Assembly: GCF_033153115.1 (NCBI RefSeq)
Contig: NW_026889796.1
Location: 992,001 to 1,056,000, forward strand
Source of the DNA: Saccostrea echinata
Taxonomy: Eukaryota
Direction of reading: 5' to 3'
DNA: 64,000 nt
Part shown: positions 43,880 to 51,245 of the stretch, in pieces
How positions within the stretch are numbered: position 1 is the first letter of the stretch
How the letters are laid out: every line of letters begins with the position of its first letter
Program-made: the position numbers and the translations under genes
The notes under the pieces: model-generated
The model's input: the letters and a program-made list of their open reading frames with translations, nothing else
Databases searched by the model: none
Told to the model about the DNA's origin: nothing

Positions 43880-44330
43880 GGAAAGAAGAGTTTTAAAACG
43901 CCATCTTGGTCATCTTTTCGCTTGAAATTCTGTTAAAATATGATATCATGAAAAGCGTGTGCGCGATCAGATGAGTATACGCGCGGGAATCTGTACACAA
44001 AGACCGGCATTAGTGGAAGAATTTTAAACAGTTTAACTGGCGTAAAACAAGGTAAGTTAGTTTGTAATGTGCACATTTTACTGTCTGTTTATTTGCTTGT
44101 TACAAATACTACTAATATGTTGACGGTGCGACCGTTGGGGCGAGCGCAGTGTTCACTTCATTATTATGATCCGCCTCTTCAAACCGCACGAGACATTTGG
44201 AACGTCTAGACTGTGACGTCACATGACGTCGTATGTTAGCTGCATTTCCATAAACAAAGTTTAAAAAGTGCAAATATTTTAACAAAGAACGTTTAATCTA
44301 CTATCTGCAGGCAATTTCCATTAACTTAAG
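43880..44330 (+). promoter_or_regulatory. Putative transposon promoter and non-coding leader exons
   Basis: CpG-rich; CGCCATCTTG 43899, GCGCGGGAA 43981, consensus donor AAG|GTAAGT at 44051/44052, and a 20-nt exon 44311-44330 bounded by CTGCAG| and AAG|GTGAGT. Confidence 0.55.
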
Positions 44331-45367
44331 GTGAGTTTATTTTGTGTGAATTTTTAGTTGTTGTCACCGCGTGAACGAAGTTAGCAGCGAGAACAAGAAG
44401 CGATGCATTGTGGGTCAGAATTACTGCGGAAAAAAATTCTATTGAATGAATGTGCAGTAGTCCGAATTTTCTCTTCGCCCAGGCGTTGTCGTTAGAGCTC
44501 GCAGTGACGAGCGGCGCTTCGCGCCGCTCGCTGCGCTCGCTATAATTAGTTTAGTGCACGTCAATATAATGCTAGACTAGAGTGCATGTTATTTGTTTTT
44601 GTGACCTAGATAAGGAAAATCAAATGTAGCAGGAATCTTGATAGGCCCTATTTCGTCAATATGTGATCTTATTATGGGATAAATGACTTATTTTCTAATT
44701 TGATCCTCAGATAGCTCTAATAAAAGTATGAGTGTTTAAAATAGGGTTACCAGAAGTGCATTTTATTGCTGGAGCACCTTCCCCTACCCCCAGCTGTGCC
44801 ACCCTTCAAAAACGCACAAATGCATAACAATAAAAAAATACTTCTTTTGTAATATTGCAACCCATCAAAGTAGACAACATATTAGTAGATTTTTTCGCAC
44901 CTCCCCCTTCCTTCCAAGCCCAATTTGAAAAATGAATGTGGCCAATTTAAAAATTTTCATATCGTAATTTGTAATGCAAGGCAGTGTATATATATTTGAT
45001 TCAGTAAAAATTTAAGCGTGCAAAACAATGCAAAATTTTAACTTGAAAATTGAAATTTCTGCTTTAATTTCAGTTGTGAAAATATAGAACTTAAGGTACA
45101 CTGATGTATGGTCTTTACATACAACTGATGTAGTTTGTTTTTCCCCAGTAAAGGGCTTTTTCCATATTGTGTTAAGGCCTCAATATTGAGATAAAAGAAA
45201 TTAGAATATATATGTAACATTCTCATCAGGCAGTATGTCTGATACTAGTATTTTTTCAGACAATTTGAATATTTTTAGGAATTTTAAAGGAATTTTAAAT
45301 ACAGAGTCAATTCTGAGAATTTAGATTTCCAGCAAGCAAGTTTATTTTAGTCCATTGCTTTAATTTA

Positions 45368-45681
45368 CAGGGGCTGACAAATAGATTTTTAGGCACTTGT
45401 CCAAGGGCAAGTGCATGGTCAAAATTCACTACCTGAATATTTGCTTGCCCCACCATAAACTATTATCATACTTTAAAAATTTATATATTCAAAAAAAAAG
45501 GAAGACAAATACTGAGTAGATCCTGCAAACCCCTGTGCAAAGCTCTAAGTCTATGAGTTAAATATGGATTTTGTTTTTTTCAAGTCACTTGCCCACGGGC
45601 AAGTGGTTGATAAAATTTCACTCGCCCACCCTTAAAATTCACTAGCCCCGGGCATCGAGCAATGGGATTTGTCAGCCCCTG
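45368..45681. mobile_element. 314-bp hAT-like MITE nested in the EnSpm element
   Basis: Perfect 15-bp TIR CAGGGGCTGACAAAT and internal CACTTGCCC/GGGCAAGTG motifs. The 8-bp TSD is no longer recognisable. Confidence 0.75.
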
Positions 45682-48207: not shown

Positions 48208-48377
48208 TAGATTCATAGGCAAGTAAACTAATGTCGAAATGCATTATTTATTTCTGTTGTTACACTAACATTTTTTTTAAATTACTTATTTGTATTCCTG
48301 GATTTACTGGAAAGTTTAAATTATTCAATGTATATATATTATATATAAGTTTTGTGATGATTATCTTAAAAATTAGA

Positions 48378-51245
48378 ATGTGGTCCAGAGCTGTGTGGCT
48401 GGAAAGAGATCATGAGGAGGAAGGAGTAATACCATCATCATGGATAAGGGAGGGTATGGTGATGTGGCCACCAGGTGTGAGTGCAGCAAAGGCCCTAAGA
48501 GAAAAGAAAGAGCCACAAGATACATGGCGGAGATTTAAGTTGATCAAGGTTAAACACCAATCTGGTATGTAGTAAAATGTTTGATACAAGACACCTGCAT
48601 ACTTATACATGTTATACAGCTTGAGAAATATGTGCCAGAGTACATCAAACAACAAAAATTTTAATGATGGCCCAATGATATAATTGTATTATGAAACATT
48701 GAAATTCCTCATTGAAATAAATGTTCAATTGAGGTTTAAAAATGAGGCATGAAATTGGCAATGTAAACATCACTTAAATCTGTAATGCTAACTATTAAAT
48801 TTTGTACTAATAACAAAATTTCTTGGTTCACTATTGATAATACTTTTAATAGCTATTGTGATATATTTTTACTTGCAGAGAATTTCGAGGAGTGTGAAAA
48901 CCATGACATCACCACTTGTATAGACACTGATGTGGACCAGGAGTCAGAAAAAAGACAGAAAAAGAAGAAAAATTTTGCTGATTTCATAACTGATGATCAC
49001 TGTAAGTTATTAATTGATATCGTGAATAGAAGATATTCTGCTTTAAAAAAAATCTGCCCATTAGTAAGGACATGATTATATCTGTAATATTATGTTAAAG
49101 ATAATTTTAATATTAATTCATTATTAACTGTGATTTTAATCTTTGTAAAAACTAGGTGACTCTGCAGAAGAGGGACAGAAAAAGGAGCAAGAAAATAAAA
49201 GTAGGTGTATCTCTTTTTATAACATCATATAAGTTGAATGTGTATTTTAGAATATTAAATTCTATTTTGTAATATGGATGTCAAATTGAATATTTCTTTG
49301 TTTTAAAGCTGGGGCCAGAGATGAAGGAAAAGTTCAAGTAACAAAAGAGAGAAAAAATTCTAAGGAAAAGAATGGTAATACAAGATTTAAATGTAAAATT
49401 TACAATTTCTTTTATTATTTATTTAAATATTTACAAGATAAATTTAGCAACACTTCAAAGACAAAGGAAAATGTAACATGATAAATACATGTAGATTCTT
49501 GGTATATCTTTAGAAAGTCTTGTATTGCCCACACCACCACCAAAATTTCATACAACTAAATCCATGGATAAAAGTGATCGCTCAAGAAACTTTTCGTCAG
49601 ATTCATCTTCATCCGAATCTTCACGTGGTACCTCAAAGAGTTTAGAAAACAGGTCTAGAAAAAAACAATCTGATAAAAACAGAAATGACAACAAAGAACA
49701 AAGAATTCCAAGGTACAGGAGCAGATCAAGACATAGTTCCTCAGACTGGTTTGCAAGGGAAAGTTTTTCAAGATCTCTGAGCCCTATTCCCATAGCAAAA
49801 GAGAAGAGGAGAATAGAAAAGCCATCTAAAAGGATAAAAGGATTCTCAAGATATAGAAGCAGGTCAAATTCTCCCACTCAATCTCGTAGCCCTAGTCCCA
49901 TAGCAAAAGAGAAGAGGAGAATAGAAAGGCCATCTAAAAGGACAAAAGAATCCACAAGATACAGAAGCAGGTCAAATTCTCCCACTCAATCTTGTAGCCC
50001 TAGTCCCATAGCAAAAGAGAAGAGGAGAATAGAAAGGCCATCTAAAAGGACAAAAGAATCCACAAGATACAGAAGCAGGTCAAATTCTCCCACTAAATCC
50101 AACAGCAAAAAGCCAAGATACAGGTCTGAAAGTGGGAGCAGGAGGCGTTCGAGGTCAAAATCCCCAGAAAAAAGCTCAAAAAAGGATACATTCCCAATGG
50201 ATAATGCAAGTAAGTATATGTTACCATACAGAGACTGAGAGAGTAACCCTTATGTTGCTCCATACCATATATTGTTATAATTTCAAGGATGATTTTTAAT
50301 AAGTATAAATTTGATATTAGAATTTCAGAAGAGAGTTATGTTTCTCCTCACGGAAATTAGACAAGAGATAAAGGCATTGAAAGCCCCTAGTTCCACCCTG
50401 AGTGATGATGGGGAAACTCTCCAGCAACTGACCACCATTGGAGAATTTGACACTTTAGAGGAAAAGTTAAAAGAAAATAGTGGGGAACGCCACAAGCTAG
50501 TAAACATATTTGATTTTAATGAGGGGAATTATAAAAAAAAATGTCTTTTTAAAATAAAAATAAGTTTACCAGAAGAGCAAATTAATTTATTTGAAAATAA
50601 ATTTGTCACAATTGTCTGGCAGGTAGTATTTCAAAACATATCTTTTTGCGTTTTAGACACAGAGGTTGTCAAGTGTTGGAGGTATCAGTGCCAGGGATGG
50701 CACAAAGAAAATTTTGCAAAAGTAAGTATTCAGTACTGTCATCTTGTATTCACTTTATGTTCTCTAACACTTTTACATTTGCTGCTTTCTAATTCAGAAT
50801 CAGTTGAGGTACAAACGATTACTCATTCTAGATTCAATCATGGTTTTATTTGTTTACACATTACAGAGTGATGTCCAATGACCTAATGGCAAAGTTCAAT
50901 ATGAAGGGCCATAAAGGGAAGGAACCATTTGCCAAATCCCAATTATGTGAGATTGTCAAAGGTATAGAGATATTTTGAAGTTTTTGTAAATTATTCAAAC
51001 AACCCGGGGGGGGGGGGGGGGGGGGGGGGATGGGGGGGGTCAGATTATAGAAAAATTGTATAAATGATGATGTCATATGATTTTCATCTTAACTAATTTT
51101 TTTTCTTTTTTCAGGTGCGGTCTTGAAGCGATTTCAAGCAACAGAACATGATATTATCCAAAACATTGCTGCAGTCTTGAAGTATGCCCCAGATAGGAGA
51201 GGCGGGGGAGGGAGAGGGAAAGAGGCAGCTGAAAATTCTGATTAA
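48378..51245 (+). CDS. Transposon accessory protein (TnpA-analogue; RS-rich repeats, DUF4806-like C-terminus), 528 aa, 9 exons
   Basis: Exons 48378-48564, 48879-49001, 49156-49200, 49309-49374, 49514-50209, 50321-50499, 50657-50721, 50867-50961 and 51115-51245 are all GT-AG, phase-consistent and total 1587 nt with no internal stop. N-terminus WSRAVW..EEEGVIPSSW..VMWPP; C-terminus LSSVGG..KILQKVMSNDLMAKFNMKG.KGKEPF..VLKYAPDRRGGGGR, which resembles DUF4806 proteins from recall. Confidence 0.85.
49780..50095 (+). repeat. 108-bp (36-aa) coding tandem repeat, ~3 copies
   Basis: CCCATAGCAAAAGAGAAGAGG at 49789, 49897 and 50005, encoding PIAKEKRRIE(K/R)PSKR..K...RYRSRSNSPT. Confidence 0.95.

Follow-up and report, generated by a model that had tools for sequence, protein, structure and literature searches.

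The window analyzed here is a stretch of 64,000 nucleotides of the oyster Saccostrea echinata (contig NW_026889796.1, positions 992,001 to 1,056,000 of the forward strand; all coordinates below count from its first letter). It contains a transposon of 9,335 bp (43071-52405, about 9.3 kb) that encodes a transposase and an accessory protein, ORF2 (open reading frame 2). The left terminal inverted repeat (43071-43090, + strand) starts with CCCAGC and 15 of its 20 bases pair with the right one (52386-52405, - strand), which ends in GCTGGG and is followed by AA. This dinucleotide (52406-52407) matches the AA at 43069-43070 on the left and the two form the target-site duplication; such 2-bp flanks also match in nine of the ten paralogous copies with both ends readable. 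The left subterminal region (43071-43760) is characterized by GACGTC/AACGTY repeats. Counted on both strands, GACGTC is found 12 times at the left end, 10 times at the right end and 32 times in the whole window, and 22 of these 32 are thus concentrated in about 950 bp at the two ends. With its CCC ends, 2-bp duplication, subterminal repeats and an accessory protein from the same unit, the element is an En/Spm (CACTA-type) transposon of the animal branch, an assignment made because CCC ends together with a 2-bp duplication mark that branch (PMC1636069). An earlier note, made from the letters alone, had placed the transposase frame inside an intron of the accessory transcript and proposed that one promoter and a choice between 3' splice sites yield either protein. 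Our analysis points to a modified version that we consider probable: the transposase frame acts as a large cassette exon, which is kept in a two-gene RNA that was seen and would be skipped in an accessory-only RNA.

The transposase frame (46282-48207, + strand) is an intact single exon of 641 aa with the same end as its closest homologs. Its match to Transposase_21 (PF02992) is weak (E 9.4e-5, 22.1 bits, under the curated cut-off of 28.6), and among 25 aligned homologs PF02992 matches four and PF13960 (DUF4218) likewise four. ORF2 (48378-51245, + strand) has nine coding exons and once spliced encodes 528 aa, identical to XP_061194512.1, a protein that its source assigns to Saccostrea echinata. 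The source label reads 'serine/threonine-protein kinase PRP4 homolog', while Pfam gives a C-terminal DUF4806 (E 6.4e-7, above the cut-off) and no kinase domain. The naming was likely misled by the Arg/Ser-rich repeats, which are encoded by three repeats of 108 nt (49773-50099, + strand). The last ORF2 intron holds a long run of G (50994-51042).

The RNA data consisted of Logan contigs on 43000-52500 from four runs (X1-X4; two samples of one study), of which the RNA status was a guess, and the inspection covered 15 of 17 joints, with 127 loose ends and 306 pieces beyond it. We take the contigs to be spliced RNAs because the ORF2 joints are present and because the X1 depth in two bins matches exon-only cover (2.93 and 1.80). 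All eight ORF2 introns, which the earlier note had counted downstream of the transposase stop, were recovered as contig joints. A further joint was found in three of the four runs (X1, X2 and X3, with sides of 121-190 letters) and removes an intron of 158 nt between the two frames (48219-48376, + strand; AG|GCAAGT ... TTAG). The raw joint (48215>48374) is ambiguous by three letters and allows four cuts, from which the one that gives a GC-AG intron (48218>48377) was chosen. Its GC donor, which the earlier note had overlooked, sits 11 nt past the transposase stop, and removal of the intron leaves 12 nt between that stop and the ORF2 ATG, in frame and with two stops in between. One X1 contig spans 47805 to beyond 49001 across this joint and includes ORF2 exons, and X2 and X3 behave likewise. 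In other words, there is a two-gene RNA in which the transposase end is joined to ORF2, although the contigs do not cover its full length. The acceptor at 48376 is therefore used as the note had supposed, but with the nearby GC donor; a joint from 44330 into it, as the note had it, was not seen among the 15 joints inspected. A premature stop as the origin of the two stops ahead of the GC donor was rejected, as the closest homologs terminate at the same motif, and the transposase stop is the normal end of the family.

The gap between the transposase stop and ORF2 (48208-48377, 170 bp) contains neither AATAAA nor ATTAAA, as had been remarked for AATAAA in the note, but it is mostly intron, spliced in three of the four runs, and the data do not support a retained spacer. 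Neither a separate transcription start for ORF2 nor a transposase RNA polyadenylated within 48208-48377 was seen, the contigs running from transposase to ORF2.

The relatives of the element in the same genome provide a second line of evidence. A transposase search gave 78 matches, and the stretches of 10 kb around 39 of them were sorted into about 24 groups besides that of the window. In a quick tree of 22 rows, from which redundant and fragmentary copies were left out, a branch with a support of 100 in the Shimodaira-Hasegawa-like approximate likelihood ratio test (SH-aLRT) separates the eight families in which ORF2 follows directly from the others. On the far side no ORF2 motif occurs within 1.5 kb 3' of the stop; many members of this far clade (L073-L087) end in a conserved FPN..D motif, often with AATAAA after the stop. 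In six of the seven other near families the best first donor reads AT|GT(A/G)AGT, in four of the six at 153-215 nt past a shared motif, whereas perfect donor hexamers in background sequence were preceded by AT in 2 of 38 and 7 of 136 cases. Five of these families (A, B, C, F and G; for A, C and G see G000 C27:11004500-11014499, C36:6210000-6219999 and C13:234000-243999) have an ORF2 exon that starts in phase 2 with a G, to which the AT of exon 1 joins in frame in every case; in A, C and G this exon lacks any in-frame ATG. With AT on one side and G on the other, skipping of 2.9-4.1 kb is predicted to create the ORF2 start codon in these five families. For family A, an ORF2 start at an ATG within the last codons of the transposase had been considered and was dropped in favour of the split ATG. 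Family D (L060) has, some 330-400 nt past the transposase stop, an ATG immediately followed by a perfect donor, about 64 nt before the ORF2 acceptor, an alternative ORF2 start.

The relatives also offer strong acceptors about 110-145 nt before the transposase ATG (L051 4381, L056 3584, L070 3152, L057 3384 and L067 3451). Joined to the AT-ending exon 1, they would create upstream open reading frames (uORFs) of one to three codons in three families (A, C and G) but not in B and F; such uORFs would be a possible damper on transposase translation.

The split start codon is reflected in protein databases as well. A profile of five ORF2 first exons retrieved 17 proteins, and examination of clusters of 10 of them yielded 49 proteins with the N-terminal motif. 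Fifteen of these begin with M-S plus one to four residues before the motif; among them are RefSeq models from three species of Crassostrea/Magallana as well as Logan ORFs. The latter have 385-393 aa and lie on contigs with lengths of 1.46-1.69 kb, less than the genomic span with its introns. Of the others, three have M-S behind an upstream frame, two are W-S fusions to the transposase, 16 start at a second Met and are uninformative, and 13 differ. XP_062588135.1 continues the exon-1 frame of family F into the split codon, with 20 of 22 residues matching. The two fusions (A0A8W8MMI5 and A0A8W8MMT6) are gene models that also drop the middle of the transposase and provide weak support. The ORF2 motif was found in none of the best 150 transposase representatives, a result that is uninformative as the ORF calls are possibly blind to introns, and none of 128 pattern matches on viral contigs proved related.

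The proposal that the transposase exon is either kept or skipped is supported because in the sister families the ORF2 start exists only after the skip. Skipping is better supported in the sister clade than in the window's copy, where we infer it. More specifically, one promoter inside the left end would drive transcription, and exon 1 would end at 44051, at the predicted donor AAG|GTAAGT (44049-44057, + strand; G at 44052), the sole donor with seven of seven matches in the element's own 5' sequence. If the transposase exon is kept, removal of the GC-AG intron gives the two-gene RNA that was seen, from which the transposase would be made and the 5' leader of which would now carry two or three nested repeats. 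If it is skipped, 44051 would be joined to 48377, and most DUF4806 protein would come from the short RNA, similar to tnpA in maize. On the two-gene RNA, ORF2 would be translated weakly if at all, through reinitiation. The switch point would be the acceptor that both RNAs share ahead of ORF2, and in A, B, C, F and G only the skip would build the ATG. A probable role of the helper is to bind the subterminal repeats, as TnpA does; a DUF4806 region has been described as structurally equivalent to the BEN domain (PMC10789644), which provides no more than a lead for DNA binding. The single promoter and the splice choice of the earlier note are thus in line with the known En/Spm design, the transposase-to-ORF2 RNA, the lack of a poly(A) signal in the gap and the sister families; the revision is that the transposase frame is better read as a cassette exon with its own donor, and the skip was not seen in this copy among the joints inspected.

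The transposases of families A, B, C, F and G end with Trp-stop, and the TG|GT at this place is a moderate phase-2 donor; its use is predicted to fuse the transposase and ORF2 frames. One could imagine a three-way switch at a single phase-2 acceptor: an AT-ending exon 1 would build the ATG, a donor in the last Trp codon would fuse the frames, and a donor after the stop would give a stop-start RNA translated through reinitiation; the latter would at the same time determine whether the transposase RNA undergoes nonsense-mediated decay (NMD). We regard the full scheme as rather doubtful. If it holds, splicing alone would set the ratio of transposase to helper.

To see how general a donor at the transposase stop is, the best 80 of 487 metagenome loci were grouped at 75% identity into 68 clusters, of which 33 were kept (no internal stop, a normal C-terminus and ORF2 found) and 35 dropped; the interval of -3 to +20 around the stop had been fixed from the present genome before the other loci were inspected. 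Nine of the 33 families have a GT donor with at least five of seven matches in this interval; control windows have one in 27 of 686 cases for the remainder of the gap (about 4%) and in 109 of 2041 for the coding frame; 1000 shuffles gave a mean of 3.4 and a maximum of 8. The excess persists across thresholds, with counts of 16, 9 and 4 of 33, versus 24%, 3.9% and 0.6%. In the far clade, which lacks the downstream ORF2, only 1 of 13 has a donor at the stop, and AATAAA follows the stop in 9 of 13 versus 4 of 33, over unequal spans; seven broken or frameshifted loci are left out of the far-clade count. An acceptor lies within 6 nt of the ORF2 ATG in 18 of 30 families versus 20 of 322 other ATGs. 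For seven of the nine families with a strong donor the predicted spliced distance from stop to ATG is 4, 5, 6, 9, 9, 16 and 18 nt, compared with a genomic median of 423 nt; of the remaining two, one predicts a fusion and one is without ATG. At two loci the last codon provides the donor: joined to the ORF2 acceptor it would place an ATG immediately behind a stop in L116 and fuse the frames in L136.

These distances, together with the fact that the sole path into ORF2 exon 1 among the joints inspected (three of four runs) starts at the transposase end, could also mean that the two-gene RNA is the only product, with the transposase exon always kept and ORF2 translated by termination-reinitiation 12 nt past the stop, so that the two proteins are coupled. 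A four-base motif at 48186, considered as a helper element of the TURBS type (termination upstream ribosome-binding site), counts as no evidence for it. Reinitiation after long ORFs is known from caliciviruses and SART1, but it usually needs extra RNA elements and reaches 3-20% in caliciviruses (PMC10275272). Moreover, the sister families need the skip for their ATG, a donor near the stop may simply mark the end of a compact exon, and the contigs drop minor paths, with two joints and many loose ends beyond those inspected. Altogether we judge an exclusive two-gene RNA unlikely.

The short distance between acceptor and ORF2 ATG, both here and in the 18 of 30 families, also bears on the idea that ORF2 has a promoter of its own and that the two frames are tandem genes. 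Such split designs exist: in Arabidopsis EN/SPM3 and 7 use splicing, whereas the four families SPM2, 5, 6 and 9 have split genes (PMC13547354), and the alternative start of family D would fit a gene of this kind. Nevertheless, an ATG that adjoins an acceptor and contigs that run from 47805 over the splice into ORF2 make a separate promoter very improbable.

Several observations speak against a transposase exon that is alternately kept and skipped. Joints from 44051 or 44330 were absent among the 15 of 17 inspected, exon-1 cover cannot be read from the depth bins, and the contigs are uninformative on starts, ends and levels. The window's copy has an ordinary donor and an own ATG for ORF2 and no split ATG, and in the other animals ORF2 has its own ATG in 30 of the 33 families, close to the stop 24 of the 33 lack a strong GT donor, and another donor peak (7 of 33), unexplained, lies at -75 to -52. 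Within the sister clade, the AT|G of family E opens a uORF of three codons, family D and the F copy L064 are without the AT|GT donor, family A carries an additional AT donor farther 5', and all these families share descent. The 49 proteins are gene models or ORF calls, many of them isoforms or re-annotations, and are redundant, and the splice scores are crude matches to a consensus of seven positions. Finally, 15 ATGs precede the transposase start in 45150-46281, should this part be exonic.

The earlier note had also predicted that the transposase RNA is a substrate of NMD, a built-in brake on transposition; the RNA would thereby be deliberately kept rare. According to the 50-55-nt rule, NMD acts on a stop when a junction follows more than about 50 nt further on. 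The transposase stop is followed by nine junctions, eight of them far past that distance, if they are on the same molecule, and the gap offers no AATAAA to end the RNA earlier. On the other hand, the spliced two-gene RNA assembles in three of four runs, including the X1 contig with ORF2 exons, and does not look scarce, even though depth cannot rank RNAs. The brake would need NMD to depend on junctions in molluscs; in fly and worm it is independent of them. In addition, reinitiation at the ORF2 ATG 12 nt past the stop would escape the brake, as would cleavage at the AATAAA in ORF2 intron 1 (48716-48721, + strand), a possible early poly(A) site for the transposase RNA. One X2 contig from which the GC-AG intron is removed extends 11 nt into ORF2 intron 1, a weak hint of such an early end. 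The note had pointed to the distal AATAAA (52005-52010, + strand) as the clear poly(A) signal; it is present, and the last X1 piece listed stops at 51978, but four others lie 3' of the transposase stop (48716, 49194, 50553 and 50596). In maize, tnpD RNA is 100 times rarer than tnpA RNA (PMC2613891), which would suit a brake, yet a literature search found no paper on one of this type. On balance an NMD brake seems questionable to us.

The 5' part of the element has been modified by nested repeats. The donors, acceptor dinucleotides and start codon listed by the note are all found at their letters (AAG/GTAAGT at 44052, AAG/GTGAGT at 44331, AG at 44309-44310, 46254-46255 and 48375-48376, ATG at 48378), and two donors with seven of seven matches in 43760-46281 are above chance (shuffle mean 0.037). 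The second of these belongs to R1, a high-copy repeat of 433 bp (44113-44545, + strand) with a subterminal inverted repeat and a 3' hairpin, present at 96-100% identity at 38 or more other loci among the 44 matches listed. The flanks vary among its copies, and the anatomy looks HINE/Helentron-like when compared with the HINE features of PMC4067079 (subterminal inverted repeats, a 3' hairpin, no target duplication and a T-rich site). The RNA contigs contain R1 in large amounts (summed depth 100-200) and with dissimilar flanks, so many copies are transcribed elsewhere. The non-coding exon of 20 nt (44311-44330) that the note had included in the transcript lies inside R1; the donor at 44331 is present in nine of nine aligned copies and the acceptor AG in two of nine, and no listed joint uses it. 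As a part of the element this exon was rejected.

Downstream of R1 lies single-copy sequence (44546-45367, + strand). Because one X1 contig (44549-45340) covers it, a large share of the 5' region may be retained in the long RNA; X2-X4 do not cover it, and the lack of any contig at 43634-43950 carries no evidential weight. It is followed by two repeats similar to miniature inverted-repeat transposable elements (MITEs), R2 (45368-45681; inverted ends of 14 bp; 15 of 40 matches listed, at 85-90% identity) and R3 (45720-46186; 24 of 40 matches listed, at 77-91%). The acceptor that the note had proposed for the transposase (46254-46255, + strand) did not hold up: it scores 11 on our crude scale, where 13 upstream AGs score at least 13, and contigs of X1 (46221-46613) and X2 (46154-46781) pass it unspliced. 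Our guess is that the native acceptor would be at 45332 or 45350. With R2 and R3 taken out, these sites would precede the ATG by 168 and 150 nt, not far from the 110-145 nt seen in the paralogs; both score below 13.

Three nested 5' repeats, imperfect ends and the low copy number raise the possibility that this is a stranded or domesticated copy and that its splicing reflects damage from the insertions rather than the design of the element. One full copy was found in the assembly, along with one deleted relative on C6 with 90-92% identity, both counts being lower bounds. Still, the two frames are uninterrupted and transcribed, the target-site duplication is preserved, and the layout with a donor at the stop and an acceptor at the ATG recurs in other animals, and we hold this explanation to be improbable. 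The deleted relative (G000:C6:9286142-9289066; L002, L048, L049) retains the right 1.9 kb at 92%, preceded by an inverted piece of 116 bp of the transposase gene.

That a transposase frame lies in the first intron of the accessory gene is textbook knowledge for En/Spm, from maize and from SmTRC1 of Schistosoma mansoni. In maize, tnpD combines the exons of tnpA with the large ORF that lies in intron 1 (PMC2613891), and the likeness extends to a single transcription unit, a long RNA with both frames and subterminal repeats (PMC2613891, PMC1636069). The maize element has CACTA ends and a 3-bp duplication, whereas the oyster element has CCC ends, a 2-bp duplication, a single-exon transposase, a DUF4806 accessory protein and a GC donor 11 nt past the stop; the split AT|G of the sister clade is not mentioned for maize in the accessible portions of these papers. 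SmTRC1 is an animal CACTA relative with CCC ends, a 2-bp duplication and a weak Transposase_21 match. In most of its expressed sequence tags (ESTs) the transposase ORF is skipped, while two ORFs stand in tandem in clone B4 (PMC1636069). That source, in the portions accessible, reports no stop-adjacent donor, stop-start spacing or split start, and does not link the accessory proteins to DUF4806. The Arabidopsis EN/SPM families switch between splice-based and two-gene coding, but with the plant TnpA/TnpD, and neither reinitiation nor NMD is named in the accessible text (PMC13547354). Caliciviruses and SART1 share the downstream start near an upstream stop; there the spacing is genomic and helper RNA elements have been shown, whereas in the oyster the spacing is made by splicing and reinitiation is only predicted (PMC10275272).

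What we consider new is the correction to a cassette exon, the GC-AG stop-start splice seen in RNA, and, in five sister families, an ORF2 start codon that splicing is predicted to build. A search that did not cover Repbase reports, supplements and most subscription papers found no paper on a split start codon, a stop-adjacent donor or an NMD brake in En/Spm, a negative of little weight. The outcome is a testable picture of how animal En/Spm elements, the RNAs of which have barely been described, ration transposase versus helper, with a transposase-helper fusion as a further possibility. It also explains annotation errors, such as the filing of ORF2 as a PRP4 kinase homolog and models with a wrong Met start. 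Should control by reinitiation or NMD prove true, a mechanism described chiefly for viruses and retrotransposons would have an example among DNA transposons. To the left of the element, the window contains a block of direct and inverted GGTCAA/TGACCT repeats with a period of 432 bp (37700-38900).

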